Part shown: in pieces, positions 25,463 through 63,129 of the stretch
Layout of the letters: each line of letters starts with the position of its first letter
Position numbering within the stretch: position 1 is the first letter of the stretch
From: a virus
Reading direction: 5' to 3' (one strand)
Virus record (IMG/VR): IMGVR_UViG_3300045988_143923
DNA: 64,000 bases
Program-made: the position numbers and the translations under genes
The notes under the pieces: model-generated
Database searches by the model: none
Told to the model about the DNA's origin: nothing
Seen by the model: only the letters and a program-made list of their open reading frames with translations

Positions 25463-25669
25463 ATGAAAACTTATAAATTGCTGACTGCCGATGAAGTGTC
25501 CAAGTCATTAGGCGTTTCGGTGTCCTATGCTTATAAGATTATCCGCCAGTTGAATGATGAACTTCAAAATCAAGGGTATCTTACAATACATGGGAAAATC
25601 GATTCATCATATTTTCAGAAGCGGTTCTTCCCCTCTTTTGGGAAGGAGGATATTTATGCCTCAGTATAA
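25463..25669 (+). CDS. xis: excisionase-type helix-turn-helix protein
   Basis: LLTADEVSKSLGVSVSYAYKIIRQLNDEL motif, lying immediately upstream of and overlapping the integrase. Confidence 0.6.
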   Translation: MKTYKLLTADEVSKSLGVSVSYAYKIIRQLNDELQNQGYLTIHGKIDSSYFQKRFFPSFGKEDIYASV

Positions 25670-26765
25670 GTACACTACAAAAAAAGGAGTGAAGTGGTAC
25701 TCAAAGTTCAACTATCTCGATGCTCAAACTAATAAGTTTGTAACTACGCTGAAACGTGGATTTTCATCAAAACGAGAGGCGAGAGCGTTTGAAGAAAAAT
25801 TTTTGGATGAGTTAGATTCTCAGTCTCAGTCTTCGACAACGCATACCATAACGGATATTTATAACGAATATCTTTCTTCGTTTAAGCGTTCGGATATGAA
25901 ACAGTCTACTCTGCAGACCAAACGCAACATATTTGCCAGCCATATCGCTCCGTATTTTGAAGGCATCCCAGTTGAAGAAATTACAGCCGCAGACATCGCC
26001 GCATGGCAGAAAAATGTCAAGGAAACAAAAAAGTCAAACGGTCAGCCGCTTTCTCCGGCTTATCTGCGAACGGTACAATCTCAGCTCAACGCTTTGATAA
26101 ACTATGCAAGTGGTAAAGGGTATATTTCTATCAACCCTCTGGTTGACATCAAGAACATGGGAGTGAAAGGTAGACGACTTCTTTTCTGGAGTTACGAAGA
26201 ATATGAAAAGTTTGCATATGAAGCTATGAATTTCCCAACTTACTATTATGCTTATGAAGTCTTATATTGGTGCGGCATTCGAGAAGGCGAATTACTCGCT
26301 CTCACGCGCGAAGATATAGACTTAGACAATCAAACGATTCGTATCAATAAGACATATAGCCGAGTTGGGCGAAAAGACATTATCACAACTCCTAAAACAC
26401 AAAGCTCCGTAAGAACGATTAGCATTCCTCGATTTCTTTGTGATGAATTGACAGAATACTTCGCAATGAAATATGATTTAACGCCAGACCAGCGCATCTT
26501 TGTGTTTACAAAGCACGGGTTATCGAGCAATTTCCATTCTTTGATTGCAAAAGCTAATGTCCCAGATATGCCAATCCACGGATTGAGACATTCTCATGTG
26601 TCCCTTCTTATCAGTAAACAATATAACATTTTTGAAATTTCAAAACGTATTGGCCATAAATCCATCAGTACAACACAAGATATTTACGGCCATTTGTTTG
26701 ACAATGTTCAAAAAGCTATTGCGGACGATCTCAATTCAATGAGGAGTGTTAGAACGGATGTCTAA
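25656..26765 (+). CDS. int: tyrosine integrase (Tn916/phage Int type with arm-binding N-terminus)
   Basis: ATG at 25656 behind a GGGAAGGAGG RBS. Has HGLRHSHVSLL and IGHKSISTTQDIYGHL catalytic motifs. Confidence 0.9.
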   Translation: MPQYKYTTKKGVKWYSKFNYLDAQTNKFVTTLKRGFSSKREARAFEEKFLDELDSQSQSSTTHTITDIYNEYLSSFKRSDMKQSTLQTKRNIFASHIAPYFEGIPVEEITAADIAAWQKNVKETKKSNGQPLSPAYLRTVQSQLNALINYASGKGYISINPLVDIKNMGVKGRRLLFWSYEEYEKFAYEAMNFPTYYYAYEVLYWCGIREGELLALTREDIDLDNQTIRINKTYSRVGRKDIITTPKTQSSVRTISIPRFLCDELTEYFAMKYDLTPDQRIFVFTKHGLSSNFHSLIAKANVPDMPIHGLRHSHVSLLISKQYNIFEISKRIGHKSISTTQDIYGHLFDNVQKAIADDLNSMRSVRTDV

Positions 26766-27467: not shown

Positions 27468-28220
27468 TTACTTCATATCCTTGAACCGGTACAAGAACTG
27501 AACCATCTGCTCCCTCGTGCAGAAGCTCTTGTAATTCTTGTTGCCCTTATCATCGCCCTTAATCAGGCCGATGCCTTCAGCCCACTTACGAGCAGTCTCA
27601 GACCAAGAGCTCGGCTGCTGCTTAGCAAGGCCGGCCAGATAGGTATCCATCATCTTGTTAAACTGTTCCTGAGTCACTTCTTCTTCCTCCTTTACAGGTG
27701 TTGCAGGTTTCTCCGGCGCAGTCAGTCGCGCCTTAAAATTCGTCCATTTACTCTGGTCACGAACCCACGGTTCCGGGCAATACTTGCCGGTCACATCGTA
27801 GTGGCGAATAACGTGGTCGGCCGCGATGTTGTATTTCTTCATCAACATCTTGACAAGTTCGACCGTTCGATCAACGGTGGCCGCCGTGATGACATACTTG
27901 CCGTTCACCTTATCGCTGCACATCTCTACTCCGATAGAGTTCTTATTCGTGCAGATGTTGCGGTACGGATGATGCGAAGACTCCAAAGAGCCGCCGCAGT
28001 GCCAAGCGCCGTCTGAATCCTTCACAGACTGAACTACACTGTTCTCGTCAACGAAGTAATGTGCCGAGGCTTTGCGATTTGGACTGGAGAAATAATTGCC
28101 GTTGCCTGCGGCCGTATCACCATTGTTCGCGGTGTAATGTACTACGATATATTTGATAGAATTGCCGCTGCGCCCATGGTAATAGTTCGATGGGTCTGCG
28201 GCAATAAACTTGATGTTCAC
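27468..28220 (-). CDS. endolysin: N-acetylmuramoyl-L-alanine amidase (Amidase_2) with C-terminal SLH-like module
   Basis: IVVHYTANN...AHYFVD...WHCGG amidase motifs. The C-terminus ARKWAEGIGLIKGDDKGNKNYKSFCTREQMVQFLYRF is SLH-like. Confidence 0.85.
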   Translation of the reverse strand: MNIKFIAADPSNYYHGRSGNSIKYIVVHYTANNGDTAAGNGNYFSSPNRKASAHYFVDENSVVQSVKDSDGAWHCGGSLESSHHPYRNICTNKNSIGVEMCSDKVNGKYVITAATVDRTVELVKMLMKKYNIAADHVIRHYDVTGKYCPEPWVRDQSKWTNFKARLTAPEKPATPVKEEEEVTQEQFNKMMDTYLAGLAKQQPSSWSETARKWAEGIGLIKGDDKGNKNYKSFCTREQMVQFLYRFKDMK

Positions 28221-28555
28221 TCTGCGTCAACCTCCTGATTTTTGCCGTTTACAACCTTGGACATATTGCAGAGACTGTCGATCATCTTGGACAGCGTGTC
28301 CTCGTCTACAGGGTAATTGATGTAGTCAGCCGAAGCCTTGACCATCGCCATGACCCATTCTTTTCTGGTTGCTCCGTCGTCGAACTTCTTCTCCGCCTGT
28401 TCCATCAGGGACATAACGAGGCCGAGCAGGTTCGCCCAGTTCTTTTCCTTGGTCGCCGTCTTTACATACTCCACCAGCTTCACAGCAAGCGGGATGCAGG
28501 TTGCCAGACCGGTAAGAATAGCCACAATGAGCTGTACAATCTGATTAGTATCCAT
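28217..28555 (-). CDS. holin (LL-H-like)
   Basis: N-terminal TM segment plus a charged tail, lying directly upstream of the endolysin. Confidence 0.65.
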   Translation of the reverse strand: MDTNQIVQLIVAILTGLATCIPLAVKLVEYVKTATKEKNWANLLGLVMSLMEQAEKKFDDGATRKEWVMAMVKASADYINYPVDEDTLSKMIDSLCNMSKVVNGKNQEVDAE

Positions 28556-32034: not shown

Positions 32035-32580
32035 TTACGCCTCCTTTCCCGATGAGTTCGGACATTCCCTTACAATCAGTTCGGTCATCGCTGGCTGAAC
32101 TACTGAGTGCATATATCCGTTGCCGCCGGCCTCTTCATAATCGCGAAACAACCCCCAGAAGGCTTCAGCCTCCATCTGTGTCCATGACTTACTGGGGTTG
32201 GTTTCTTCGTTTGTGTAGTAACGGTAACTCTGAAGAAGCCTGTCACGGAGCTTGTTGCACTCGCGGCGTTTATTGGTTTCTTCTACTGAGTCCAGTCTGG
32301 CTTGGTAGCGCTCCATTGCTTGGCGGATAGTCTGTATCTCGTTTTCCAGCGTTTGCTGTATCTTGATGCTCTGGGCGCGGTACTCAGGGTATTTATGCAC
32401 AGCGTCGAGTGCTTCATTGATTCGCTGGTCGCGGGCTTTTTCAGCCTCGTAGCGTTCAATGAGAAAATCTCTGACCTTTTTGTAGATCAGATAAAGAAAA
32501 ACGCCGGCGAGAACTAACTCGACGACGGTAGAAAGGGTGACTTGCCCAAATAGATTTATAAAATTATTAAGGCCGGTCAT
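32035..32580 (-). CDS. hypothetical protein with N-terminal TM helix
   Basis: 181-aa ORF. Confidence 0.5.
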   Translation of the reverse strand: MTGLNNFINLFGQVTLSTVVELVLAGVFLYLIYKKVRDFLIERYEAEKARDQRINEALDAVHKYPEYRAQSIKIQQTLENEIQTIRQAMERYQARLDSVEETNKRRECNKLRDRLLQSYRYYTNEETNPSKSWTQMEAEAFWGLFRDYEEAGGNGYMHSVVQPAMTELIVRECPNSSGKEA

Positions 32581-32624: not shown

Positions 32625-32653
32625 TTGACGTTAGGTGGATTCTATTGTATAAT
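32625..32653 (+). promoter_or_regulatory. near-consensus sigma-70 promoter (TTGACG-17-TATAAT)
   Basis: Read directly. It drives the + strand cassette embedded in the - strand tail operon. Confidence 0.6.
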
Positions 32654-32676
32654 TTATACAATAAAGAAATGAAGGT

Positions 32677-33711
32677 GTGAGACCAGTGACAGAGAACGAA
32701 ACTCCGCTCAAGTTATGCAGAAAGTGGAGCGAGATGGCTCCCGGCTGCTTCGACACGTTAGACGTGTTGTGCAGAGAGTCTCACGAAGAAATGGGAGTAA
32801 GCGATGTGTGCGACCTCCCAATAGGCGCAGCATATGAATATCTGCGAGTAAAGTGTCATTTGGAAAAAGACGGACGTGCTCGTCTCGCCAGTGAACTGAC
32901 GGGATTATACATTTGGCGAAAGCATAAGGTTATCTACAACTTCGACCATACTCTTGCGCAAGAGTTGGTCGCTCAAGCCGATGCTATAACAGAAGATGAC
33001 AAAATCCCCACAGAAATTCTGCTGAGACCGCCTTATCCGTGCGTGTATATTCAGACCGATAAGCCGATTCCCGGAAATTCGCTGCCTCTCAAGTTTATGG
33101 CTTGGATAGAAGAAGACGCGAATTCACACGTTAGAGAGTTCCGCGTCCAACCTTTTTCAGATGACATGGAACATACCAAAACGTTCATGTTAGAGCTGAC
33201 GAAGCCCACGGTTTATGAGTGTATTTATGATACCGTAGCCACAACCGCAAAATATCACACTTTCGCCAAATTTCAGTTGAACAACATTCACATTGACGAA
33301 AGTGTTCGTGTGGTGCTCCGCGCTATGCAGTTATATCTGTATGTCTGCAGTGACCAAGCGGATATCCGAGAAAATCCTAAACAGAAGGGAATTTATCGGC
33401 CTCGCCAGCCGGGTCAGCCGATTAAAGATAAATTCCGCGAGATAGACATGAAGGACGTCGGTGTTGTGATTGGTCACACGCTGCGCCGTGCCGAACAGGA
33501 ATCCAGCGCTCCGCAATCAAACCCTTCGGTTGATGAATCGAAGCAGGGAAGTCATAAACGCCCGCATACTCGTCGAGGCCACTGGCATCATTACTGGACT
33601 GGCCCAAAGAGCGAGCCAGAACAGAGAAAACTGATTCTGAAGTGGACTCACCCGATACTCGTCGGCGGTTACACAGATAATGTCGTTACCATGTTCCCGG
33701 TAAAGGAGTAA
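32677..33711 (+). CDS. hypothetical protein, cassette gene A (C-terminal RRGHWHHYWTG motif)
   Basis: 344-aa ORF. An alternative GTG start lies at 32686. Confidence 0.6.
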   Translation: MRPVTENETPLKLCRKWSEMAPGCFDTLDVLCRESHEEMGVSDVCDLPIGAAYEYLRVKCHLEKDGRARLASELTGLYIWRKHKVIYNFDHTLAQELVAQADAITEDDKIPTEILLRPPYPCVYIQTDKPIPGNSLPLKFMAWIEEDANSHVREFRVQPFSDDMEHTKTFMLELTKPTVYECIYDTVATTAKYHTFAKFQLNNIHIDESVRVVLRAMQLYLYVCSDQADIRENPKQKGIYRPRQPGQPIKDKFREIDMKDVGVVIGHTLRRAEQESSAPQSNPSVDESKQGSHKRPHTRRGHWHHYWTGPKSEPEQRKLILKWTHPILVGGYTDNVVTMFPVKE

Positions 33712-33714
33712 TGT

Positions 33715-33999
33715 ATGAAAAACAGAAGTTCTAACACTGTTGCTGTAATCATGTGGGTGTATGCAATAGTCAACGCGGTTGTTGGTATTATTTTTGCTTG
33801 TTCAATGTATGATACCTATGAAGTCTTGAGCATCTTGTTTATAGCAGTAACTGTTGTTTTCAGTTTTGGCATCTATGCTGTTGGTGAAATCATCCAACTT
33901 TTGCAGGACATCAAAGATAATACCAATGGTGCGATTCAACCTATCACATTATCGCAAAAGCAGAGCAGCTCGGTAGATGATGATTTGCCTTCGATATAA
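33715..33999 (+). CDS. small membrane protein, cassette gene B
   Basis: 94 aa with two to three TM helices. Confidence 0.55.
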   Translation: MKNRSSNTVAVIMWVYAIVNAVVGIIFACSMYDTYEVLSILFIAVTVVFSFGIYAVGEIIQLLQDIKDNTNGAIQPITLSQKQSSSVDDDLPSI

Positions 34000-34011
34000 G
34001 CATCACTAGAG

Positions 34012-34950
34012 GTGAATGATATGTCTGAAAAATATACGGTTATACAACATGAAAAGCGTGTGTTCTGGGCGCATGATTGTCCTGTACTACTGCAGGCTCA
34101 TGCTTTAACAAAGAACAATGTAGACAACAGTATCTTGGTTCAATGCAAATTCGAAAATCTATCTGAACAGAACATAAAGGCGATGTTTGTTTCCGTCAAG
34201 TGTTTTGATGTTCTGAATAGAGAATTAACTGGAGTGGACAAATTTTCTTATCTGGATATTTCGATACAACCATATACGTTGTTTGGAGACAGGACAGCTA
34301 TACTACTGCCGGATAATGAAACCAGAAATATTCGCATCACTCCTGAGCAAATAGTGTTCTCTGACAACACAGTCTGGGAAAACAAATATAGGCAAGCATA
34401 TGAGTTAGCGAAATATGATCAACTACCAATTTCTTCTTTAGGAGAATTAGCAAGCCAGTATAGCCGAGATTTAAGTTACATCAGCCCCACACAGCAGCAT
34501 AACTATTTGCCTTGTCATGAAAATGGATTTGTTATTTGCGGATGTGGAAAAATTGTTATGAATTCGGTTGCGAATTGCCCCTGCTGCAAGGTTCCCTTGA
34601 AAGCATTGTTCGACTTGAATAATGTCAAAAATCTGGAAAAACATCTCTCTGAATACAATGCTGAACTAGAAGATAATTATAAAAAAATTGAGATTCAACG
34701 CGCCAAAGAGAAAGCCATACTATCTGAAAAGGCCCGACAAGAGGAACTTCAACATCTGCAGAGAAATCCTTTTATAAAACAAAATCCGAGTTCAGATCAT
34801 ACAAAAGTATATAATCTGAAGAAAAAAATCGAGTTAAGTATCTTTGAGAAGGTAGATAGTAAGATTGAAAAAAATAAAAATGCTGTTCTCATCGTTCTCT
34901 TCGTTTTGGTCATATTACTCGCAATCGTGTTACCTCTATATTTGGGGTAG
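34012..34950 (+). CDS. zinc-ribbon, coiled-coil, C-terminally membrane-anchored protein, cassette gene C
   Basis: Has CGCGK...CPCCK, a K/E-rich helix and a terminal TM segment (VLIVLFVLVILLAIVLPLYLG). It ends in TAG. Confidence 0.6.
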   Translation: MNDMSEKYTVIQHEKRVFWAHDCPVLLQAHALTKNNVDNSILVQCKFENLSEQNIKAMFVSVKCFDVLNRELTGVDKFSYLDISIQPYTLFGDRTAILLPDNETRNIRITPEQIVFSDNTVWENKYRQAYELAKYDQLPISSLGELASQYSRDLSYISPTQQHNYLPCHENGFVICGCGKIVMNSVANCPCCKVPLKALFDLNNVKNLEKHLSEYNAELEDNYKKIEIQRAKEKAILSEKARQEELQHLQRNPFIKQNPSSDHTKVYNLKKKIELSIFEKVDSKIEKNKNAVLIVLFVLVILLAIVLPLYLG

Positions 34951-34989
34951 TCAAAAAATGTGGCACTTTTGTCATTCAGAAAAAATAAG

Positions 34990-35016
34990 AAAAGCACCCT
35001 TTTACAGGGTGCTTTT
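34990..35016. terminator. bidirectional terminator
   Basis: AAAAGCACCC-TTTTACA-GGGTGCTTTT hairpin. Confidence 0.65.
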
Positions 35017-35286
35017 ATTTGCATATGTTCCCTTCAGGTAGGCTTCGGCTATCTCATATTGACGCTGAAGCTCGCACAGGTGATCTTGAAGACGACGAAA
35101 GGAGTAGCTAGGAATTTCGTCGATGATAAAACCATTACTGCCCGTACCGGTCACCTTCTGACCCTTCGCATAAGCGATAGAGCCAGTCTGCATGTCGGAT
35201 GCGACAATGGTAGCGTCGTTAGTATCCACATCGAGCTTGCGGATATTAAGCGACTTTACAGGTGTACTGCCGAGACAAAGTTTCAA
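35002..35286 (-). CDS. truncated fibre N-terminal module
   Basis: DTNDATIVASDMQTGSIAYAKGQKVTGTG matches the N-terminal module of the two BNR-propeller genes. Confidence 0.45.
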   Translation of the reverse strand: MKLCLGSTPVKSLNIRKLDVDTNDATIVASDMQTGSIAYAKGQKVTGTGSNGFIIDEIPSYSFRRLQDHLCELQRQYEIAEAYLKGTYANKSTL

Positions 35287-35305
35287 TATTGATCACCTCT
35301 TTCTT

Positions 35306-36420: not shown

Positions 36421-37515
36421 CTATGCCCAGGAATCAAAGGAATCTTTGAGGTAAGCAGCGACTTTACTCCTGAAAACTATAGCTACAAACTTACCCGTAC
36501 CATAGCAAACATGTGTCGAGGCCGCGCTAGTCGGCAGCGTAGTCTGAATCTGAGTCCAGTTGATACCATCGGTAGAGTAAGCTGCGATATTGTTACTACT
36601 AGACATGGCTACAAACTTGCCATTGCCATAGCATACCCATTGCCAGGCTGCAGAAATCGGCATCGTAGCCTGAGTCCAGTTGATACCATCGGTAGAGTAA
36701 GCTGCAATATTACCGGTCCTAGACACGGCTACAAACTTACCATTGCCATAACAAACCGAGAGCCAGGTTTTATTAGCCGGCAACGTAGTCAGAGTCCAGT
36801 TGATGCCGTCCTTCGAGTAAGCGGCGCGATCATCAGAACCACCAACAGCCACAAACTTACCCGCACCATAGCAAACTGAATACCACCAAACCTCATCCGA
36901 AATCGTAGTCTTAGTCCAGTTAATGCCATCAGTAGAATAAGCAGCGACACCCTCTACACCACTAGCTATCGCTACAAACTTACCTGCACCATAACAAACC
37001 GAGCCCCAGTCGTAACGACTAGCAGGCATTGTAGTCTGAGTCCAGTTGATACCATCGGTAGAGTAAGCAGCGACATTATCACTGTTAGCCACAGCCACAA
37101 ACTTACCCGCACCATAGCAAACCGAGTTTCCGATTCCACTAGCAGGCATTGTAGTCTGAGTCCAGTTGATGCCATCGGTAGAATAAGCAGCGATATTGCT
37201 GCTATAATTCACAGCCACAAACTTACCCGCACCATAGCAAACCGAAAACCAGCTCTCGCTAGCAGGCATGTCGGAACTTTCCCATTTCGGTTTTTCAATA
37301 GGAACTAGAGTACCCGTTACCTTCTGGTTATTCGCATAACCGGTCAGTCCTGAGAGAATGTCTTTGGCTCCTGCAGTGGCATCAGATGTGTCGATGCCGG
37401 TCTCAATGGTGCTGATTTTACTCGCAAATTCCGATGCTTTAATAGTTCCGGTTTCCCCAGTCTTAGCTTTGATGGCGTCGGCGATAGCTTTAAGATTAGT
37501 CTCCTGAACGCTCAT
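36421..37515 (-). CDS. receptor-binding/fibre protein with BNR (Asp-box) beta-propeller repeats, paralogue 1
   Basis: ATG at 37515 overlaps the upstream TGA. Six to seven AAYSTDGINWTQTTMP...SVCYGAGKFVAV repeats. It ends in TAG. Confidence 0.65.
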   Translation of the reverse strand: MSVQETNLKAIADAIKAKTGETGTIKASEFASKISTIETGIDTSDATAGAKDILSGLTGYANNQKVTGTLVPIEKPKWESSDMPASESWFSVCYGAGKFVAVNYSSNIAAYSTDGINWTQTTMPASGIGNSVCYGAGKFVAVANSDNVAAYSTDGINWTQTTMPASRYDWGSVCYGAGKFVAIASGVEGVAAYSTDGINWTKTTISDEVWWYSVCYGAGKFVAVGGSDDRAAYSKDGINWTLTTLPANKTWLSVCYGNGKFVAVSRTGNIAAYSTDGINWTQATMPISAAWQWVCYGNGKFVAMSSSNNIAAYSTDGINWTQIQTTLPTSAASTHVCYGTGKFVAIVFRSKVAAYLKDSFDSWA

Positions 37516-37784
37516 CAATAGCTCGCCTCCCAAGTGTCTTGAATAGCCACCTGAATAGCAGAATCGGTATACGCCTTAGCATTAGCTAAAGATTGCGCGG
37601 TTAAACCTTTCACATCTGCCGCATTCGGAATCTGTGTGTTCTTGCCATCAGCGTTGCCGGTATACAGCCGCTTTTCATTGGTTACATACGCAACCTTGCC
37701 CTCTTCCAGCGATGGCAAACCGGATTTAGGGCCAGTATAATCGACGGTGCTTTCGCCCGTCGGAAATGCCGAAATAATAGGCAT
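37515..37784 (-). CDS. hypothetical tail protein
   Basis: 89-aa ORF. Confidence 0.5.
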   Translation of the reverse strand: MPIISAFPTGESTVDYTGPKSGLPSLEEGKVAYVTNEKRLYTGNADGKNTQIPNAADVKGLTAQSLANAKAYTDSAIQVAIQDTWEASY

Positions 37785-45602: not shown

Positions 45603-48600
45603 TTATTTTTTGATTTTGAGAACTTCGATAATGTCGTTGACCATGCGGCGAGATACAGCTTCATGCTGCTTAACCGTGTCTCCGTCCGCACCCTTGATGA
45701 TGGTGTCACCGAAGGTAACGTTCGTGACGTTTTCACGCGGGATCGTGACAACTTCACGGTTCACGCCGGAAACAGGCATCTGAGCGGCCTTGGACAGGTC
45801 AGGCAGGGCAGAAGCGGACAAACCGCTGGTAATGGCGGACATTACCTTGAGAATGGAGTCGAGCGACTGCTGTTTGGGCTTGTCGAGCACGATTTCGCCC
45901 TTTTGCAGAATCGCCATCATCTCGTCTTGACGCAGGGTAGAGGCATCGCCGACAACGCCGCCGGTGTGGTATATACCGAGGTACTTATCATAGATGTTAT
46001 TGCCATACTTGTCATACCAAACACCAGTGTGACCATCATAGTGAACACCGAGATCGTACTGGCTGTTGAGTTGACCAGCATAGTCGGCATTCTTTTGGTT
46101 GAGCGCTTTCTTCTGCTCCACCGTCATGTTGGCAGACCAAGTATCACTGTTCTTCTTCATCTTCGCCACGATTCGAGCGATCCCAGCCGCATCTGCATCC
46201 CCAGTGCCGTATTTATTCGAATCGCCAATGATATTGGAGTTGGAACCGTTGGAAGAAGAATTGGAACCGTTTTCACCAAGACGATCATAGACTTCGAGGT
46301 AAGTAGCATTGTACTTCTCCATAGCCTTTTGGGCGTCTTGCCATGCTTGCGTAACCTTGGCATTGATGTCCGAACCCGCACGAGTGTTATATTCAATTAA
46401 ATCATCGTAAAGTGTTGCCCAACCATCTTGTATTCTCTTTCGAGCCATTTGGTAGAGTTTTTCCTCCGATGAAATTGAATCCTGCAGTTTCTTAATCTCG
46501 GCGTCCTTTTCCTTCTCGTAAGCCTCCTGCATCTTATCAAGATTATCGGTCTGACGGTCATAGGCTTCATTTGCCTGCGTCTCGCCAAGTTCTTTTTGGA
46601 GATCGGCGAGTTGTTCTTCAAGGTCTTTACGCTTTGCGATTGACTCGCGGCTGTCATCCAGAGACAGAGCGTTAATCTTCTCTTGGAGCTTTGCCATTTC
46701 CTTGACCTTGTCGGCTACCTCGTCCTGATAGTCGGCTTCGTCCTTGCTCAGTTGCAGGCTTTCCTTCTTCTTATCGATGATCTCGCTATACTTATCCTTC
46801 AGCTCTTCCAGAGCGTCGACCTGCTGGTCGATTTCGTCTCGAATCATATCCTCGACGTACTTGAACAGAGCGTCAACGCTATCCTTGGTGTCGTCGAAGT
46901 CGATTCCGACGCCGGCTTTTACGTTAGCCAGAACGCTGCGGTACGCATCTACATTCTTAACAGCCTGCGCATAGCCTTCCTCGGTGAGGTCAAGCATAGC
47001 GAGCTGTGCGTAAACGGAACCCCACTGAACCTCGGTCAGGTCGGCCGTTGCGTTCAGCAGATTATTCAGAGAAACAACGTCGTTCTCCTGCAGAGCCATA
47101 CGCAGACGCTCCACATAAGCGGAGGCGCTTTCCAAAGCCATCTGCTCAGTCTTAGCTTTGATAACGCGGTTGATGGCTTCCTCGTTGATGGTCAGAAGAC
47201 CATTCTCGTCTTTGAGGTATCCCATGTATTCGACGCCAAGTTTGGAGATTTCTTGGAAGGTATCGACGGAGATAAAACCACCATTTGTCGAGTATTCCTC
47301 GGCAGCCTTCTTGAACGTGTCGAGAACGTCCTGAATCGTATCAACAGAGTCGCTTGCCGCATCAACAATATCAGAGAGATAGTCGATAACTTTCTGCTTA
47401 ACATCCTTAACAGCGTCTTCGTATTCCCACCACTGATCTGAGAGGTCGGCCACTTCGTCGCTAAGGTCGGAATATCCCATGCCACGGTAATACTGCGCTT
47501 CCTTGTGCAGGTTCTTCTGAGCTTCGCGATAATGGTCAATGATGCCGTTGAGCGTAGACTCAATTGCGTCGCCATCGATAGACGAGAAGATAGTATCAAC
47601 AGTCTTGGTTTCGAAACTGTCTGCAATGCCGCTGAAGATGCCGGCCAGAGGATTGCCCTTCTTGGCGACACCGTTCAGAATATTCTGCGACAGCTTTGCC
47701 GAATTGAAAATCTTACGCTGAGCACGAGTGAAAGAGCGTTCGAGCTTATCAGTATCGAGCAGACGGTCAAGGCTTCGCTCGGCCAGTTTGATAGCATTTT
47801 CATGTTCCGACGTGATCTTGTCGTACATGTCCTTCATCGTGTCGATGATGCTGTCATGTGCCTCCCAGTATTTCTTCTGCATAGACATAATGTATTCAGA
47901 AGAATCTTTCTGCCCTTGAGCACGGTAACGCTCGGCGGCTTTATGGGTTTCATCCTGAATCTGCTTATAATAAGCGACAATCTTCATCGGGTCGCCACGC
48001 TGCTTTTCGACGAGGTATATCTTGTGCTCAATCTGGTCGATGATATCTTCGACTTCTTCTTTGATTTTGTCGAGAGCTTCCTTTGCAGAATCTGAAAGCT
48101 GAGAGGTATCAGCAGAGACTTTGACGGTGGCGTTACTGGATTTGCCAGATGAACTGGAAGGCACCCAGTTCCGGTAATGACCATTGGTGGCAAAGCTAAG
48201 ATTGCTCAATGCACCGTTAGCGTTCGCGCCGCCCCACACACCGCCAGATGCTTGATGGGGAATACCGCCGTGCATCAGACCAGCAGTCAGATTAGCAGGA
48301 ACAATCGCGTCACCGGGTTTAGTGTTGATGACTTCCATTCCATGCAAGCCAACAAATTTACTATGCTTGCCGTCCCGAGAAATCCACTGCTCAGGGCCAA
48401 GTTCGCCGACAAGTGTTTTGCCGCCTACAGCGTTGCCGCCAGATGCGTACTGAGTCATTTTGCCAACGTGTCCGGTGAAGTCTTGCTTTTTATTCCCCTC
48501 ACGGCGACTATGAATGTCAGCCTTGGTCTGAGCTTCGGTTCTGGTTGTCTGGACTGTGTTTACGCGAATGGTCACACTCTTATCGTGAATACCACTCATT

Positions 48601-51600
48601 AACCCAACTGTGTATAGAATCTTACTGTTGGCTTCCGAAGTATTTACATTGACATGGCGTTCTTTTTCGATAGGTTTAAGTGCTTCATCTATCGCATTGA
48701 CTTTCCCGGCAGCTTCCACAGTATTCCCTTCAATAGTAAGCTGTACTGGATTTCCCGCCTCATCTTGGATTTGCGCCATCGTACTCAATACAATTTGCGC
48801 CTGTTCTTGCGTAACACCAAGACTGCTTGCGAAAGCATCCAAGTTGCTCACATTGATAGACCAACCACCATCATCAAGACGTTCAACACTAGCAGCAGCT
48901 TCGCCCGAAGCGGTTTTCACGCTTTCAAGAGATGCTTTCAGGCCATCAAAAGTCGGAGTCTCTCCGCCAATGCTTGCCTTGAATTTATTCATGGCACTTA
49001 CAAGCGTGTCGAGCTCATCTACAGATATTTCTTTAACATCAATATCCGTTCCTTCAGTAAGAGACTCGAGTGCGATTTTCGCACTTTCACTCATGTGCTC
49101 CCATGCTTTTGTGGACGACCGATCAGCCGCAGAAACAGATTGTTTGATACGATAGGTGTCATCGTTCAGCGTCTGGATACTTGATGTAACCGAACTAACT
49201 GTTTTCGGAACATAATCCGAATATGTGGAGATTAAATCAAGTGATTGTTGCAGAGAAGCTGCCGAAATTCCAAAAGCGTCGGCCAGAGCGACAACATCAT
49301 GTTGTGCGACTTGGATAGAACCAGTATCCCAATCCACATCCATGAGTCCATCGACAATCTTTTTCTTGTCAGCACTGAGCTCGTTATACTTCTTATGAAG
49401 TGTATTAAACGTTCCGGTTAGGTCTTGACCGACATTATCCTCGTCTGTACCTGTTAAGAAGAGGCCCTCATTGTCCTTAACCCACTGCTTCGCTTCTTGC
49501 AGGCTAACAACCTTGCCGATGAGAAGCTCCATTTGATTGCGAGCTTCCTCTGTGTTAATTTGCCCTTTATTTACTGATTCTGCAAAATCATCGTAGATTG
49601 AAACCATACTCTCGTGATCTTGTACATGGTCGGTAATCCCTTCCATAGAGGTTTCATAATTTGCAAGAGCATCAGAAACCGTATTAAGAGAGTCAGTTTG
49701 TTTGCTCAGGGAATTTGAAATCGCATCCAGAGCTTCAGGCAAAGCGCCAACTTGAGCAAGAGCGGCCAACCGAGCGGCAAATTCCGAAGCATGATCGCCA
49801 GTATCAACCAGAGCGGAATTGAGAGCGGAAAGTTGATTCTTTGACAATTTTTCGAGATTGAAGTCCTTGAGAAGCTCGTCTACGGAAGAACCTTCAATAT
49901 CTGAGCCGCTTAGAGCCTCTTCGAAATTACTCCGGATGGTCTCTCGCATTTGATACATGTCTGACTGGAATTGTTTTAATCCGAAAGCCTCAGACAAATC
50001 AATTGCGTTCATTTCTTCAGGAGTTAATCGTTTCGATAATTCTGCGCGAACAGCCTCCATCACTGTTGACATTTTTGCAACATATTTATCGTAAGGCATC
50101 GAGTCCTGTTCTTCTTGAATCTTATAATAATCAGAAATAGCCTTTTTCCCTGCTTCGGTGTTTTTAACAACTTGAAGCATCGCATTCGCATATCTTAACG
50201 GCGCGTCGGGATTATTTGCGTCATAAAGCGCGTCAGAACTAATGCTGTCAGCGTATTGTGATAAAAATGTTTTCTGCTGGTCATCTAATTCGTAATAGAG
50301 TTTATTCGCCTCAAGAGACGCTTGCATCATCTGCTTGACCTCGGAGCTACTTGCATCTACACTCTCAGAAGCAGAATGCCAAGCATTAGCTAAACTTTCG
50401 CCATCTGCCGATAAATCGCCTGTCATTCCACGCATTTGATTCAATTGACCGAGAATATTATCAAAATTCTTTCCAAGAGCTTCGGAATTATCGCGAATAT
50501 AATCAAGCCAAGTAACACTTTTAGAGCCGTTGGTTTCTTTGTTGATTTTATCAGCGTACTCATCGTAAGTCATACCAATAGTGTCGGAAATTAACTTATT
50601 GAAATTCTTAATATCTCGGCCGCCGTTTTTAGACAAAGCAGTTTGAACCCGAGATAAATAATTAAAGATGTCATTATCGACACTTTTTACGCCTTCCTGT
50701 GCTGTTTTATATTGTTCTTGGAAGTCTTTATAGGCAGCTTCATAATTCTTCTTATGACCGTCATTCTCTGATGATCCACCATATACGGCATCTCGCGCTT
50801 CCTGTCTCTGCTGCTTCTCGAGTAATGCGATTGTTTCCTCGATAGCAGAATTTTTATCCAAGATAGCTTGTTGCTCATCGTTATAACCCTCCACTAATGA
50901 TGGATTGATCCCAACAAGTTGGGAAACAATATCTTGGTATTCTTGATATTCATCGGCAGCCAGAGAAATATTTTTGCCGTTGTCTGTTACGCCCTTGGAC
51001 AATTCTGCGAATCGATCTTTGAGATTTTCGACTGACGTAATATTGCCCTCGATAGATGATTTGGCGCTGTCGTAGTTGCTCAATGCATTTTGGGTTATTT
51101 CGGCTGCTTCTTGTGCGGACATCACTGTTTTATCAATAGCACTCATAAGACCGGTTAGTATAGTCTGAACAGCCATAAATGCTACCATCGACACGGCCAT
51201 ACTTGCAATAGCAGACCCGATCCCCTTAAAAGTCGATGCAATCTTGGCTCCGAGTGTTCCTACCTTTTCTTGCTTTGCAGTGAAGTTATCGATTTGTCCG
51301 TTAACAACATCACACTCATTCCCGACGGTGTCAAGGGATTTAGCAAACTCACGACTTTGAATACTTGCGCCAGAAAGAGCTTTTTCAAAATCAGCACCTC
51401 TAAGTTTTTGCTTCATCTGAGCGTAGTTTTTCAGAATTTCATTTTGTTCCTGCCAATAGTCGTGGTTTTTGGTGTTATAATTTTTCAGCCAACTGAATAA
51501 ACCACTTCCGCCAAAGATGTTTTCTCCATATTCTCCCTTTCCTCCGATAATGCTTTTCCCGTTCATTGACAGAAGCAGGGAACCTACAGGAGCGATAAGC

Positions 51601-51901
51601 CCCGGAAGAACGCCAAGTTTATCAATCAGAGTGTTGAAGAACCCGAGAATGCCAGAACCGGCGCCGATAGTTCCTTTCACAAGACCAGAATCAAGAATAG
51701 AAGTGCTCAAAGACTGGAATGTGGCTTGGAACTGTTGCATTTTACCCTCGATAGAATCAAGATGTTTTGCGTTCTCGGCATCGGCTGAGCCAGTTGCGTT
51801 TTTAGTCGACTCGATGACGTCCTCAACGGTCGACCAGTTCTGGATGAGCGCTGAAGTTGTATTCGCCATTCTCTTCGTTTTGTTTACAAGGGTTGCAAAG
51901 C
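45603..51901 (-). CDS. tail tape measure protein, last exon
   Basis: Reads through ...KTKRMANTTSALIQNW... to the TAA at 45603. The ORF track reports 45603..51869. The exact 3' splice site is uncertain by a few codons. Confidence 0.8.
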
Positions 51902-52309: not shown

Positions 52310-52705
52310 CACGGGGGCACAACTCCCGTGAGCTGTCTAAAACAGCATCTCTGCGTTTCCACAGAAGTTTAGATCATTTCTTAATCGTGCCTTTCGGCGA
52401 CGACCACACCGTTTCCATTTAAGGGGTTCTCACCCACGCCTTTGTTTGCGCCGTACTTCTGTTGCTGCTTACGCAGCCCTACATGGGAATGATCGTTTGA
52501 CACACCTCTATTCGAGGCTTCGCGACCAAGCTACCATTGTCACTGCACTTAGGCTTTTGACCGTATGCAATCCTTACCGTTGTTTTACTTTCGTTCCCGT
52601 CATGCCAGCTTATTTCATCCGCATTGTGGTGGTAAGGCTTTAGGTTTTACTGGTTTTAGATGTGTTATTTACGCACATTTCTGTACGCACAGGCAATATT
52701 GGTCT
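52310..52705 (-). mobile_element. group I intron 4 in the tape measure gene (family A)
   Basis: Close sequence relative of intron 5. P7 pairing GAUCAU/AUGAUC. P1 pairing CAGGC/GCCUG, which is C-G rather than U-G. Terminal G. Confidence 0.65.
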
Positions 52706-52972
52706 GCCTGATCTACGTCACTAAGTTGATCATAAACGCCGGCAATTTCGCGCATAATCTGCGTTGTACTCTTAAATTGAGTGCCTGCCTCGTCGGCCAT
52801 GATGTCAACTTTGTCGTGGGTTAAAGTTTTGATGGTTTCGCGAAGCTCGCTCACAGAGTTTGCCATACCATCCGTTTCGATTCCGGCCTCTTCAGCATCA
52901 GCTTTAGCGGCACGGAGGTACATACTAAGAGTTTTAGCCCATGTCAATCTGTTACTTTCGGCGGGTCGCCTA
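52706..52972 (-). CDS. tape measure protein, exon (…RRPAESNRLTWAKTLSMYLRAAKADAEEAGIETDGM…LSDVDQA)
   Basis: Conserved TMP core, part of ORF 52669..52980. Confidence 0.75.
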
Positions 52973-53132
52973 CTGACCACTTTTGTGGCGGCAAGGCCGT
53001 TAAACCTTGCTCTCGCGTTTCGTTGTTAGATTATAGCGCGAGTTCGGACTGTATCTTCACCCCAGAGCGGGGGAATGGCGAAGCCCCGCTTGTTACCAAG
53101 CGGGGCTTTACAGTCTCTACGGATATTAAAAT

Positions 53133-53651
53133 TTAAGTTATTGGAATGCTGACCGGTTCATCGAAAGAATATAGATCATGATCATTATCCATATAATATA
53201 CTAAATTTGCACTAGTTATATTATCTCGATCATCCCAATGTTCATTGTTACTATCTATGCTCAAAAATCCATCAAATGTTTGATCTGGGGCTAATAAGCC
53301 CGTATGCGTAAAACCTTCGGAGTAAACAATATTCCCGTTTGAATCCAATAAATCTGCACCAATAAGCGGAGATTTCAAAGCAGATCCAGAAATATTTTTT
53401 ATTTTGAAGTAAAAATACATTACAGATTCGCTCTCGTAATTTTCGCATTTTTTAGTTTGAAATGTAACTTCCAAAGGTATATCCACAGGACTAGTTTCAG
53501 GCTTAGCATCAGATTCATCTATTACCGTATATGTTGTAGCTGGAGATTCATCTTGAGCAGGCTCAGCTTTCTCAACGGATTCCTTCCCGCAACCGCAAAA
53601 GCTAAGCGTAGTTATAATAGCCAACAATATAAGGTGGCGTTTTCTTTTCAT
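53133..53651 (-). CDS. intron-encoded secreted lipoprotein-like protein (not a homing endonuclease)
   Basis: ATG at 53651 behind an AAGGGTGAG RBS. MKRKRHLILLAIITTLSFCGC signal/lipobox-like N-terminus and a beta-rich body. AT-rich. Confidence 0.65.
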   Translation of the reverse strand: MKRKRHLILLAIITTLSFCGCGKESVEKAEPAQDESPATTYTVIDESDAKPETSPVDIPLEVTFQTKKCENYESESVMYFYFKIKNISGSALKSPLIGADLLDSNGNIVYSEGFTHTGLLAPDQTFDGFLSIDSNNEHWDDRDNITSANLVYYMDNDHDLYSFDEPVSIPIT

Positions 53652-53673
53652 ATTTCTCACCCTTTCAACTTTA

Positions 53674-54579: not shown

Positions 54580-54856
54580 CTGTTTGTTACTTTTTTCCTT
54601 AAAAACGAAAAGAACAGGTCATTTCTGCCTGTTTCTGCAATTTCATTATTCGATTATATTTGCAGACCCGACTATATCTTCACCTCCAAAAAAGGAGGGG
54701 ATGGCATGACTCTGCACGTTACCGTGCAAAATCGGTTAGTCTGTACGGATTCTTGTGGTCAAACACAAGTCTTTCCTCGGTATTGCCCATCTCTGGGTGT
54801 TCACCGATATAGCCATCTTTTACGCTGCACATCGCTGTGCAGGGAGGCCGGTCAAA
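54580..54856 (-). mobile_element. group I intron 1 in the tape measure gene (family B)
   Basis: P1 pairing GAGGU/GCCUC. Has the CCGUACAGACUAACCG and GAAGAUAUAGUCGGG elements. Terminal G. Confidence 0.7.
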
Positions 54857-56532
54857 ACCTCATTGAAACGGTCTACGACGCTTCCAACATCATCAGCAGC
54901 AAGATGGAAGCCCTGCAGAGTAGAAACAAGCGACTGTGCCGCGTCCTCAATGTTCGTGTATTCCGACACGTTCATATATTTGGTCGCCCAGTCGCCAAGA
55001 TTGGAGGCATCCTCCAAATTAAATCCGAGTCGGCTAAACTCAGATGTTGCTCCAATTACATCCGTAATCGAAGCGCCGAGGCTCTTCGCGCGTTCACCAG
55101 CGCTGTCAAGATAATTAGCGTAATCCTGACTTGAACCTTCCGAAACCTTTTTCAGGTCGGTCATCGCCGTGTCAACGTCGATAACATTCTGGAGCGTCTG
55201 CTGTAAGCCATTCTGCAATAAGTGCAGTCCTGCCATCGCAATAGCCGTGTTAAAGTGATCCTTGAACAGGCGAGTCAGCTTCTGCCCGACAGTTTCAGAC
55301 GTAAACCCGAGTTCTTCCATACTGGAGCGAACAGATGCGAGGTCTCTTTGAAGTCCCTCAACGCTATCACCTTCGCCCGGGTTTCTCGCACGGCTCATAA
55401 TGTTCCGCAGTTCGCCTTGAAAATAAGAACCCGCCGCTTTTGGGTTATTTTTAAGTGTTTCGCTGGCCTGCCGATAAATGTTCGCCAAATGTTCCTGCGA
55501 TCTCTGAGAACGAACGGTCGCAGTTTGCTTAGCATTAAACAAATCTGCCTGTGCGCTCGCATCAGCCCACGCGGAACGGAGTCCATTCAGGCCCTGCTCC
55601 AGCTCATAAGTACCGGCCGCCGCATTCTGGAAAACAGATTTTGCATTCTCGAATGCCGTCCAATCATAATTCTGCAGCGTCCCTTTATCTTTTAGAGCCT
55701 GAAGCTGCGTTATATATTTCTGGCCGGATGCCAAAACATTATCAGTAACCGACTGAGAGTTCTGTCTGGACACTGTAGTCCACATCTTCTTGATGTTTTT
55801 CTCAAGCGCGTACTTCTCTGGCGTAAAATCCGCCATGCTCTTGTACTGTTTGAGCATCTTATCAAGGCTGGCTACATTCTCCTCACCAAAAAGGTTACCC
55901 TTCTTGAGCTTTCCAAACTTAGAGCTAATCTGCTGAACATCCAACATAGATCGCTCGGCCTTTTCTGCAGCCTTCAAATTGTTGCGAGAGAACGCAATAT
56001 TGGTCGCCTGCTGTGCCTCTTTCAGAGCGTTAACGCTTTCTACAGTTCCCTTGGTCGTTGACTCAAACTTCTTCATCGCGGTTTCAGCCGCCGAGATAGC
56101 CTTTGAATCGATAGGACTCGGCATGTTCTTCAGATACGACATCGTCTGTCTCAAGCCGGTCGCCTGACGCTCCATTGTACGCAACTGCCGTTCCGCAGCC
56201 TTCTCTGCGTCTGTTTTGCCCGATGTGGAGCTTTTAGACGAGCTGCTCTTTGTGGTAGAGGAGCGGGTCGAAGCCGCAGAAGACTTAGCTTTGCCGGAGC
56301 TGTTTGTTCCAGTTCCGGCCGCCGAGATAGCCTTTTTAATCTGAGCAGTGATATTGGCAGTATCAACGTTTACTTTCAGCTTGGTTGAGGAAGCGTTTTT
56401 GATTGCTGAACTGATACTTTTCTGCAGAGCTGCAGCATCAACTTGAATTGGAAAATCCTTGTAGTTACTGAGGGCGCTTTCGAGTTTGTCAAAATTAGGG
56501 ATAAGTTCGACAGTAACGCCTAAATCAGCCAT
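54857..56532 (-). CDS. tail tape measure protein, exon 1
   Basis: Helical N-terminal part ending ..VVDRFNEV. The ORF track (54820..56532) runs on into the intron. Confidence 0.8.
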
Positions 56533-57486: not shown

Positions 57487-58677
57487 TTATTTGAACAGCT
57501 CAGCGAACAGTTTACTTGCGCTGCTTCTTACATCCTCATCAAGGTAAATGCACCCGAAGGACTTCTCGCCGCGCAGTTCATTACACATCTTTACCAGTGG
57601 ATTGTTCGCAGTTCTGTCCACTAGTGACTGACCATAATCGCCGCTCAAGAAGATACGGCTGTTCTGTCCGAGACGGGTTCCTACAAGTCGAATCTGTGCT
57701 TCAGACAAGTCTTCCGCCTCGTCCACAAGCATAATCGTGTCGTTGTAGGTTGTACCCTTCATATAATAGGGGATGTTCGTATCAAGCTGGCCGCGCTGAC
57801 GAAGAGCTTCAAGCTCAAACTCGCCGCCCTTTAGCTGCTGTTCAATCGGCAGAAAGAAGTTGCGCGTCTTGTCCTCAAGCGTACCCTTCAAATAGCCGAC
57901 CGGAGCGCCTTCACCGGCAGGCTCACGAATTCCCAACAGCTTGCTCTGGTTGCCCTTTTCGAGCACATGATATAGCCCCATCTGGGTGGTCAGAAAAGAC
58001 TTGCCGCTGCCGTAAGTGCCGAGAATTGCTACAATGTCAATATCACGGTTCATCAGCAGGTCGAGAGCACATCGCTGAAGCGAGTTCTTTCCCTTGAGAT
58101 AGCCGGACGGCGGCAAACGCAGTTCAACAAACTTCTCGCCGTCGAATCGCATTTCGCTCGTCTTGCCGGTCTCCGTGTCCGTCAGCAGAAGATACTGATT
58201 CGGGAACAGGGCAGCGGTGTCGAGCTGCTCCATGTACTGGTTGATTTCATCAGAAGTACCCGCGAACTGAACATATCCGGTATAGACATCATCCTCTACA
58301 TCAGAAGATGCTACTTCCATGTGATACAGCCCCCGCGCAATACAGCGACAGGAGAGGTCATCCGTCACGAATACAATCGGCTCTGCCGCGCGGGTCTGTG
58401 CCGCATCGTAGCAGATTAGGTAATCCGGAGAACCGTCATGCAGAGCAATAGAAGTGCTCGGAATCACCGTGGCGTAGTTTGCTACCGTATACATCTCTGG
58501 GTGACTGTCCAGTAGTCGGGTCACCTTGCGAGCCTTATGCTTGACCTCGGCATCCTTGCTGCGGCTGGTCTTGATATTCTCCAGCTCACGCAACGTCACC
58601 ATAGAGATGTAAAAAGGCTCCGCGAACGCACGTTCACCGGCGTTCAGCAGAGCACAAGTGTCATAGAATTTCTTCAT
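57487..58677 (-). CDS. phoH: PhoH-like ATPase with N-terminal PIN domain
   Basis: Walker A GTYGSGKSF, Walker B MLVDEAEDL, and a PIN-like N-terminus. Confidence 0.85.
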   Translation of the reverse strand: MKKFYDTCALLNAGERAFAEPFYISMVTLRELENIKTSRSKDAEVKHKARKVTRLLDSHPEMYTVANYATVIPSTSIALHDGSPDYLICYDAAQTRAAEPIVFVTDDLSCRCIARGLYHMEVASSDVEDDVYTGYVQFAGTSDEINQYMEQLDTAALFPNQYLLLTDTETGKTSEMRFDGEKFVELRLPPSGYLKGKNSLQRCALDLLMNRDIDIVAILGTYGSGKSFLTTQMGLYHVLEKGNQSKLLGIREPAGEGAPVGYLKGTLEDKTRNFFLPIEQQLKGGEFELEALRQRGQLDTNIPYYMKGTTYNDTIMLVDEAEDLSEAQIRLVGTRLGQNSRIFLSGDYGQSLVDRTANNPLVKMCNELRGEKSFGCIYLDEDVRSSASKLFAELFK

Positions 58678-63126: not shown

Positions 63127-63129
63127 ATG

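Follow-up and report, generated by a model that had tools for sequence, protein, structure and literature searches.

The window, the whole 64,000-nt stretch of viral DNA that was analysed, carries genes for a DNA polymerase, tape-measure and minor-tail proteins, a holin, an endolysin and an integrase, and it comes from a temperate phage of gut Clostridia. Amid its late genes lies a + strand unit of three ORFs (A, B and C), and every neighbouring gene is on the - strand, as the original prediction had described. Tail-fibre-like genes lie on one side of this cassette and the lysis module on the other, and it is about 5.5 kb away from the prophage end, where a comparison with the related phage L025 locates an att-side homology break near 27220; GCA_041404145.1 was viewed over 20 kb around the prophage. 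No RNA family was detected in or beside the cassette in an Rfam scan, and the cassette has no nucleotide match among GenBank phages. The features are as follows.

27468..28220: endolysin gene
28217..28555: holin-like gene (PHROG 6918 at 5.9e-7)
32625..32653, + strand: predicted sigma-70-type promoter TTGACG-17-TATAAT (11/12, the top site in 31.5-36.5 kb)
32644..32662, no strand: palindrome ATTGTATAATTTATACAAT, perfect 9-1-9, overlapping the -10 box; candidate operator
32677..33711, + strand: gene A as first listed in the ORF list, 344 aa
32686..33711, + strand: gene A from its probable start, GTG 32686, 341 aa; AcrVA2-like/FinQ-family protein
33715..33999, + strand: gene B, 94 aa; membrane protein with two predicted spans, C-terminal tail acidic
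34012..34950, + strand: gene C as first listed, 312 aa, TAG stop
34021..34950, + strand: gene C from its probable start, ATG 34021, 309 aa; tail-anchored protein
34990..35016, no strand: bidirectional intrinsic terminator, 11-bp stem with T-rich tails on both strands

The three ORFs of 344, 94 and 312 aa are present as first described, and the true starts of A and C probably lie slightly downstream. GTG 32686 of A has the RBS GAAGGTG 7 nt upstream, and relatives of A are annotated at 341 aa. ATG 34021 of C follows the RBS AGAGGTGA, and the resulting MSEKYT is the start of all C homologues. B begins 3 nt past the stop codon of A behind the RBS AAAGGAG, and a gap of 21 nt separates it from C. 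The 3´ two-thirds of the cassette had been called AT-rich, which is roughly right: the GC content of A (48.4%) is that of the window (mean 47.8%), and B (37.5%) and C (36.6%) differ from A by 11 points. The TAG stop of C is indeed rare, but it is not unique to C, because it ends 4 of the 73 likely genes in the window, including the adjoining fibre gene (36421..37533).

The near-consensus promoter upstream of A holds up on inspection, with both hexamers (-35 and -10) invariant in five related phages (L003, L004, L025, L026 and L042); the L004 spacer differs. One-mismatch matches to the consensus occur twice in the 64 kb, where 0.30 would be expected, and 3 of 100 shuffles contain as many, so that taken alone this enrichment provides modest support. 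The palindrome over the -10 box has a single copy in the window (0.01 expected) and is identical in four relatives, and in L004 about 6/8 positions per arm are retained, as judged by eye from the alignment and not computed. It may serve as an operator. At the other end of the cassette, the hairpin has folding energies of -16.2 kcal/mol (+ strand) and -17.0 kcal/mol (- strand), with z-scores of -4.5 and -4.3, respectively, and 0 of 200 shuffles fold as well. Its loop contains the stop codon of a 94-aa gene on the - strand (35002..35286), and its stem is invariant in five lineages that carry three different cargos. The promoter, terminator and strand data thus support an accessory cassette with its own promoter and terminator that runs opposite to the late genes.

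Protein A belongs over its full length to the AcrVA2-like/FinQ family and is homologous to AcrVA2 in both sequence and structure. PF26125 (AcrVA2-like) is recorded on all 92 of the 92 A homologues, including ones that share 92–93% identity with A, and one homologue is named an AcrVA2 family anti-CRISPR in UniRef. These PF26125 labels are taken from precomputed records of the homologues, through which A itself is placed; A has no Pfam match in the model set used, which lacks PF26125, and its sequence has no exact entry in the assembly index. A matches PHROG 6160 with an E-value of 1.3e-40, and a profile of 47 A homologues matches the AcrVA2 crystal chain 7CI1 over positions 12–327 of 341 (E 3.6e-25). 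The AF2 model of A (pLDDT 86.8, pTM 0.84) has the three-domain AcrVA2 fold, and a Foldseek search of the PDB with this model retrieves only AcrVA2 (7ci1 and 7ci2; E 7.5e-13, TM 0.50–0.60), with a probability of 1.00 for 7ci1_A and an E-value of 0.12 for the next PDB match. The original prediction recognised none of the three proteins as a described defence family; A is not an unknown protein, and the profile, Foldseek and FinQ matches identify it as AcrVA2-like over its full length.

The conserved-looking C-terminal motif of A is real and is conserved in the family alignment. W80, H297, R299 and H302 of the A family are invariant in the 47 sequences; the three C-terminal residues align with H286, R288 and H291 of AcrVA2, W80 and D90 correspond to W79 and D89, and in the KRPHxRRGHWHxYW block the alignment with AcrVA2 runs residue for residue. 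Mutation of W79, D89, H286, R288 or H291 weakens or abolishes the activity of AcrVA2, which works alone (10.1101/2022.11.29.518452). AcrVA2 inhibits Cas12a through a translation-dependent loss of cas12a mRNA, and its H286A mutant has been used in pull-downs to trap the bound target. Like AcrVA2, which is encoded by a Moraxella bovoculi prophage, A falls into a length class of about 320–345 aa and is encoded at an accessory position of a temperate phage. The two proteins differ in that their pairwise identity is merely 16–17% in the structural alignment, in that the host of the phage with A is a Gram-positive gut Clostridia lineage, in that neither an AcrVA1-like partner nor an Aca gene lies beside A, and in that the gene for A is followed by a swappable slot for membrane proteins. 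Many acr loci carry an adjacent Aca-type HTH gene. No such regulator gene was found beside A, and the Pfam and PHROG searches show neither an HTH nor any other DNA-binding domain in B and C. Relatives of A reside mostly in Oscillospiraceae genome bins; a literature search for type V-A systems in Oscillospiraceae found no papers.

A direct relationship to FinQ is also detected by tblastn, in which A matches features annotated finQ in 540 plasmid records (E 2e-8, 26.5% identity, residues 77–327). FinQ, which inhibits fertility and comes from IncI-type enterobacterial plasmids, is likewise encoded by one accessory gene on a mobile element. It is plasmid-borne, is found in Enterobacteriaceae and acts on F transfer genes, whereas A is phage-borne and 26% identical to it; carriage by a conjugative plasmid is not shared by A, as the window is a phage genome. 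FinQ is reported to lower the mRNA of F transfer genes, and most AcrVA2 orthologues sit in genomes without Cas12a (10.1101/2022.11.29.518452). A is most likely a counter-defence or inter-element antagonism gene. The family of A is known for such roles and not for host-type defence, and the proposed defence function of the cassette is mostly unsupported.

Comparison of the A alleles among related phages divides the gene into two parts.

32686..33318, + strand: variable N-terminal two-thirds of A, presumed target-recognition part
33319..33711, + strand: conserved C-terminal part of A, containing the HxRxxH motif
33565..33582, + strand: HxRxxH motif of A (H297, R299 and H302 in the 344-aa numbering)

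Nucleotide homology to the L004 lineage breaks at 32661 and resumes at 33319. Within the N-terminal two-thirds, A shares only 24–57% identity with the L004–L007 allele (P0007) in 30-residue bins, and this is the least conserved part of A across the whole family. The C-terminal part is 97% identical to the L004 lineage in nucleotides and mostly 93–100% identical in residues, with 77% residue identity in the first bin, at the breakpoint. It has been published that the N-terminus varies together with the target, and a swapped N-terminal part on a constant C-terminus of A fits this view.

The allelic variation among sister phages also fits an arms race with variable rivals, as would be expected if A were FinQ-like in action, that is, if it were expressed from the prophage and lowered the mRNA of a competing phage or plasmid gene as an exclusion factor for the resident prophage. 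The direct FinQ match, the reported effect of FinQ on F transfer-gene mRNA and the occurrence of most orthologues without Cas12a agree with such a role, and the site near the prophage end together with the cassette's own promoter would suit the predicted expression in lysogens. AcrVA2 is, however, the sole family member with a defined target, and the sequence cannot tell a FinQ-like from an anti-defence reading; we regard the FinQ-like role as possible, with the odds against it.

A occurs without B or C in 8 of the 8 other gene contexts inspected (JCL1032, a Pasteurella phage, L003, L012, L017, L020, L025 and L026), and a tblastn search for B and C in 15 further A loci (L027–L041) found neither. 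Sister phages at 92–95% nucleotide identity keep the promoter, A and the terminator, and the cargo behind A differs: B-C is replaced by unrelated genes exactly from the stop codon of A. The slot holds B and C in the window, in L004–L007 and in L042–L045; L003 has a DUF5050 lipoprotein there, and L025 a membrane protein with a double zinc ribbon. The homology breakpoints in the cassette are at 32661, 33319, 33711 and about 35019.

Inversion of a tail-fibre segment was considered as a source of this variation and rejected. The 365-aa + strand protein behind A in L003, which is the DUF5050 lipoprotein, is unrelated to the 365-aa - strand fibre gene of the window (best E 0.72), and no long inverted repeats flank the region. 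We likewise do not accept the A copy in L026 as a genuine variant; it is 96% identical to A, is cut at about residue 273 and runs into unrelated sequence, and the truncation is likely an assembly or binning artefact. L026 is a contig of 8 kb from a Bacteroidales bin, in which A is followed by phage-like ORFs on the opposite strand.

B and C show the converse distribution. In 11 of 11 non-phage loci (L008–L011, L021–L024 and L046–L048), a B-like gene immediately precedes a C-like gene, and A is present in none of them; most of these loci are visibly integrase/resolvase islands. Judged by this gene order, B-C is a separate, independently mobile pair and its members are not partners of A.

The original prediction treated A, B and C as the components of a single new system for abortive infection or superinfection exclusion that is expressed from the prophage. 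Such a system would explain why the genes are tightly packed, only 3 nt and 21 nt apart, and share a single promoter and a single terminator, and two of the three proteins are membrane proteins. The trio is also kept in at least two phage lineages. In the other loci examined, A and B-C are separate. The exchange of B-C for unrelated genes at the stop codon of A, the 11-point GC difference and the solitary action of the characterised member of the A family also speak against one system. None of the three proteins matches a defence model in PADLOC-DB 2.0 at E-values up to 1, so that this check on the defence reading came out against it. With A in the known AcrVA2/FinQ family, occurring apart from a cargo that is itself swapped, a three-protein defence system is very improbable. 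An exclusion role is still possible for B-C as a mobile cargo pair, and the FinQ-type relatives of A are exclusion-like inhibitors of rival elements.

B is a membrane protein, as predicted, with two hydrophobic spans and not the several that a multi-TM protein would imply. Its homologues (n = 50) are all at least 43% identical to it, and it has no family match in Pfam, PHROG or PADLOC. The N-terminal module of C is beta-rich; C also has a CxC...CxxC zinc ribbon, a long helix and, at its C-terminus, a membrane span. The zinc ribbon had been proposed from the window alone, and its cysteines are nearly invariant in the C family. Residues 1 to about 230 of C belong to a family that comprises 2,468 clusters at the 50% identity level and in which the membrane span is followed by variable ectodomains (RCC1, TPR, trypsin, LRR, RHS and SH3). 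Cellular and island homologues of C have 431–533 aa, and members of the wider family reach about 1,400 aa, whereas the phage C ends at the membrane span, without the variable ectodomain that its cellular relatives have.

The fold of C yields few clues. Its AF2 model is unusable (pLDDT 48), and a PDB search with a profile of 40 diverse C relatives gave only zinc-ribbon noise. The N-terminal module resembles DUF5780 (PF19092) at 14.8 bits, a weak match below the 28.2-bit cut-off; 6 of 40 family members, at E-values below 0.01, and two larger relatives also match it, with up to 26.5 bits, every score lying below that cut-off. This likeness explains nothing about C, as DUF5780 has no known function. 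A PADLOC search with the C relatives and their island neighbours found nothing relevant, only a trypsin ectodomain and one weak match (E 0.0019).

The loss of the ectodomain raises the idea that B-C is a dominant-negative form or decoy of a cellular membrane system, which would titrate or block the full-length relatives in the host. The phage C keeps the cytoplasmic module and the anchor without the sensing or binding ectodomain of its longer relatives, its cytoplasmic module is 55–60% identical to the cellular and island homologues, and the copy is intact and 98–100% conserved in phages from several samples. Among viral contigs, a search with an alignment of closer C relatives matches only this phage lineage. 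The two phage lineages differ in 9 codons (6 synonymous and 3 not), which are too few to show selection, and we consider a decoy unlikely. As a low-confidence guess, B-C may act at the membrane of the lysogen, by exclusion or by interference with the cellular full-length relatives.

The position of the cassette beside the lysis module, together with the small size, two membrane spans and charged tail of B, as in class II holins, could also suggest that B and C are lysis or virion proteins on the other strand, such as a holin-like B paired with a partner that is anchored. However, a holin-like gene and an endolysin gene are already present in the phage, and B matches no holin family in PHROG or Pfam. 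The pair is also present in non-phage islands without lysins, and sister phages do without B-C, which leaves a lysis or virion role scarcely credible.

The prophage genes bor and lom of lambda are morons with their own promoter and terminator, and llp of T5 adjoins the receptor-binding gene. The cassette resembles these loci as an autonomous or opposite-strand unit within late genes, next to hypervariable tail-fibre genes, and as a unit whose cargo consists of membrane or envelope proteins. It differs from T5 llp in that the cargo does not track the fibre type: L025 has a fibre gene 98% identical to that of the window and a different cargo, whereas L042 and L004 have the same cargo as the window and different fibres. 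A receptor-masking cargo matched to the fibre, of the T5 Llp type, was therefore rejected, since independent assortment of cargo and fibre argues against such a partner.

Taken together, the locus is probably best explained as a moron cassette in which an AcrVA2/FinQ-like A sits in a fixed frame with a swappable slot and B-C is a separate cargo. The frame comprises the predicted sigma-70-type promoter overlapped by the palindrome, A and the bidirectional terminator, with one variable slot behind A. A may work like AcrVA2: its variable N-terminal and middle part would bind the N-terminal peptide of one particular target protein while it is being made, and its conserved C-terminal HxRxxH region would trigger loss of the target mRNA during translation. 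Candidate targets are a host immune effector such as Cas12a or, as with FinQ, a protein of a rival mobile element. B-C is a separately mobile pair, also carried on small integrase/resolvase islands, that fills the slot in the lineage of the window phage, and C is an ectodomain-less, tail-anchored version of a very large membrane-protein family.

These observations correct the view of the locus, in that its lead gene is a member of a described family and no new three-protein defence system is present. To our knowledge, no bacterial protein other than AcrVA2 has yet been reported to destroy a specific mRNA once it has recognised the nascent peptide. The sister phages provide a clean natural comparison for this family, with the same C-terminal part and different N-terminal parts of A in an identical promoter-terminator frame, which could make target specificity testable. 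The locus also draws attention to a pair of membrane-protein genes, as yet uncharacterised, that travels among phages and small islands. In a bolder and rather doubtful reading, A spares Cas12a and destroys, in a peptide-triggered way, the mRNA of another host or rival-element protein, the two alleles have different targets, and B-C is a new membrane-anchored conflict module that acts by exclusion or as a decoy. If that were true, the alleles of the window and L004 would be a ready-made specificity swap for how the family reads the nascent peptide, and a B-C decoy would mimic a very large unannotated membrane family of Clostridia.

The opposite-strand unit of the original prediction was recovered: three ORFs lie head to tail on the + strand inside a - strand block.

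32677..33711, + strand, ORF of protein A
33715..33999, + strand, ORF of protein B
34012..34950, + strand, ORF of protein C

Judged by ribosome-binding sites and by how relatives are annotated, A and C most likely start slightly downstream, at GTG 32686 (341 aa) and ATG 34021 (309 aa). The predicted promoter (TTGACG-17-TATAAT, 32625..32653) is the top-scoring site in the region. One-mismatch consensus matches number two in 64 kb against 0.30 expected, which by itself is weak evidence; neither hexamer varies among five related phages, one of which has a diverged spacer. A perfect 19-bp palindrome (32644..32662), unique in the window, overlaps the -10 box. The bidirectional hairpin at 34990..35016 (-16.2 and -17.0 kcal/mol on the two strands, z about -4.4) is followed by T-rich tails on both strands and is invariant in all lineages examined. 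The compositional claims stand in a weaker form: B and C contain 37% GC versus 48% in A and the window, and TAG, described as an avoided stop, ends 4 of 73 likely genes. In the region 32567-32608, the 181-aa gene on the - strand (32035..32580) has a strong AGGAGG 22 nt upstream of its own ATG; an out-of-frame ATG (32596) lies just 6 nt from this site and opens a 9-codon ORF that overlaps the gene start. Judged from the sequence, this could be a leader peptide or a form of translational coupling.

Protein A, originally recognised as no described defence family, belongs to the AcrVA2/FinQ family, as profile, fold and residues all indicate. AcrVA2 is an anti-CRISPR of a Moraxella bovoculi prophage, and FinQ is a plasmid fertility inhibition protein. 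The Pfam search with A itself returned nothing because the copy searched lacked PF26125 (AcrVA2-like), which is present on all 92 of 92 database homologues of A; one homologue is named AcrVA2 family anti-CRISPR in UniRef. A also matches PHROG 6160, of unknown function (1.3e-40), and FinQ directly (E 2e-8, 540 plasmid records). As a single sequence, A aligns with the AcrVA2 crystal chain 7ci1 at the C-terminal motif only (E 1.4e-6), whereas a profile of 47 homologues aligns over the full length (E 3.6e-25, positions 12-327 of 341). The AlphaFold model is confident (pLDDT 86.8, pTM 0.84) and resembles only AcrVA2 in the PDB (E 7.5e-13, TM 0.50-0.60; next match E 0.12); its matches in the viral structure library are 13 phage proteins, none with a tested function.

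The functional residues are conserved as well. Family-invariant columns include W80, H297, R299 and H302 (344-aa numbering), and D90 aligns with AcrVA2 D89. The peptide that AcrVA2 recognises is the nascent N-terminus of Cas12a; AcrVA2 is weakened by W79A and D89A, while H286A, R288A and H291A abolish the lowering of cas12a mRNA and leave binding intact (Marino et al., 10.1101/2022.11.29.518452). The same study reported that FinQ is homologous to AcrVA2, and that AcrVA2 orthologues occur mostly in bacteria without Cas12a and combine a conserved C-terminal domain with a divergent N-terminus. According to a 2026 review, the mechanism of the mRNA decay is still unknown.

The trio had been read as one defence or exclusion system. 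All four IMG/VR contigs with C carry the whole trio, as do the sister phages L004-L007; in the contexts examined elsewhere, A is found without B-C and B-C without A, and A is modularly independent of the pair. No B or C lies beside A homologues in eight other gene contexts inspected: Lactobacillus phage JCL1032, where the A-like gene sits between the lysis genes and attP; a Pasteurella phage, where it adjoins the integrase; three different gene arrangements from two metagenomic lineages (L012, L017, L020); and L003, L025 and L026, which are sister phages. A tblastn screen of 15 further genome loci (L027-L041, mostly Oscillospiraceae bins) likewise detected neither. In L026 (JAHZGZ010000310.1, labelled as a Bacteroidales bin; 5605-6936), a 96% identical copy of A joins unrelated sequence near residue 273, and the opposite strand carries phage-like ORFs; we rejected it as a real variant, since it is probably a chimeric assembly on a mis-binned contig.

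Conversely, no A occurs in any non-phage B-C locus (L008-L011, L021-L024, L046-L048). Each of them, whether found by way of B or of C, has a B-like gene (90-96 aa) immediately before a C-like gene. Most can be recognised as small islands that carry a tyrosine integrase, an HNH gene and a resolvase; the best resolved have gap on one side and a xanthine permease gene on the other. Such islands (L008 3116-10944, L022, L046) contain, besides B and C, a tyrosine integrase, HNH_3, a resolvase, one or two genes resembling secreted lipoproteins, and a gene for an unannotated protein of about 295 aa. In L021 the counterpart of the 295-aa protein has 415 aa and a YonV_C match; L046 carries an additional C-like gene, placed upstream of B.

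B and C have no explanatory match in Pfam, PHROGs, NCBIfam, PADLOC or the PDB, and the structure model of C is too poor for use. The B family is narrow (50 proteins, all at least 43% identical). In C, residues 1 to about 230 form a beta-rich module with a CxC...CxxC zinc ribbon, whose family is very large (2,468 clusters at 50% identity, E ≤0.001). Beyond the module, family members carry a membrane span and then highly variable ectodomains (RCC1, TPR, trypsin-like, BspA-type LRR, RHS, SH3, WG repeats). The phage C stops at the span and is therefore tail-anchored, without an ectodomain. B-C probably act at the lysogen membrane; we guess, tentatively, at a role in exclusion or in disturbing their full-length relatives in cells.

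Nucleotide comparison with sister phages revealed sharp homology breaks, which define a fixed frame, a swappable slot and an exchanged N-terminal part of A. L003 and L025 are 93-95% identical to the window until the last codon of A (33711/33712) and divergent beyond; behind A they carry a DUF5050 lipoprotein and a double-zinc-ribbon membrane protein, respectively. L004-L007 match the window to 32661, diverge across the first two-thirds of A, and rejoin at 97% over 33319-35019, a stretch that comprises the hairpin, B, C and the C-terminal third of A. When the window and L004-L007 alleles are compared, residues 1-210 of A are 24-57% identical (30-residue bins), versus 77-100% from residue 211 and 93-100% from residue 241. 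The constant elements are thus promoter, A and terminator; at least three unrelated cargos, membrane or envelope proteins, alternate in the slot behind A, and the part of A presumed to recognise the target has itself been swapped. Two of the four IMG/VR contigs with the trio, L042 and L043, were compared more closely and diverge immediately after the hairpin, within the fibre region. The type of cargo varies independently of the type of tail fibre, which argues against a cargo that masks the receptor of a matching fibre.

By gene content, the window is a phage genome. Replication genes (DnaB-like helicase, DNA polymerase, NrdD, integrase) occupy the + strand half; the - strand half carries late genes, with tape-measure-like, minor-tail and tail-fibre-like beta-propeller proteins, a holin-like gene and an endolysin. 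Further accessory-looking genes occupy the far end (57487-63926).

25554..26765, + strand half, integrase
27468..28220, - strand half, endolysin
28217..28555, - strand half, holin-like gene
57487..58677, PhoH-like gene
58674..59258, ClpP-like protease
59773..60876, second integrase-like gene
61841..62674, SLH-domain phosphodiester glycosidase
63051..63222, tRNA-Trp and tRNA-Gln

Homology with the prophage in GCA_041404145.1 (L025; 4358-4836) begins at about 27220, 14 nt inside the 3´ end of host guaA, which places the attachment site between integrase and endolysin and indicates that the window displays an excised or circular junction. Other genes, for a methyltransferase and a DUF1540 protein, occupy the corresponding flank of L004. 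The tail-fibre-like genes at 35306-37533 (- strand; 365 and 370 aa) are two tandem paralogues made of repeats of about 40 aa (W.SVCYG.GKFVAV), a pattern like that of beta-propellers; at the DNA level the repeat occurs in up to 13 copies. The entire stretch 35020-37608 differs between phages otherwise 92-98% identical, so it is probably a host-range module. Two - strand group I introns (51921-52284 and 54258-54566; RF00028 at 61 and 69 bits, Rfam gathering score 50) lie between a 2,088-aa ORF (45603..51869) and the tape-measure-like ORF (54820..56532), so that the tape-measure gene appears split by self-splicing introns; the small ORFs between them (52669..52980 and 53133..53660) have no Pfam match.

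We infer that A would lower the mRNA of one specific target while that target is translated, that specificity would reside in its variable N-terminal and middle portion, and that the decay step would depend on the HxRxxH region. A host immune effector is one possible target, as for an anti-CRISPR; a protein of a rival element is another, as for FinQ, which acts on F transfer genes. The second reading is near the exclusion idea of the original prediction, and the two are inseparable by sequence. The cassette is real and largely accounted for by a described family. Of modest additional interest are the natural swap of N-terminal alleles on a constant C-terminus of A and the uncharacterised mobile membrane gene pair, B-C.
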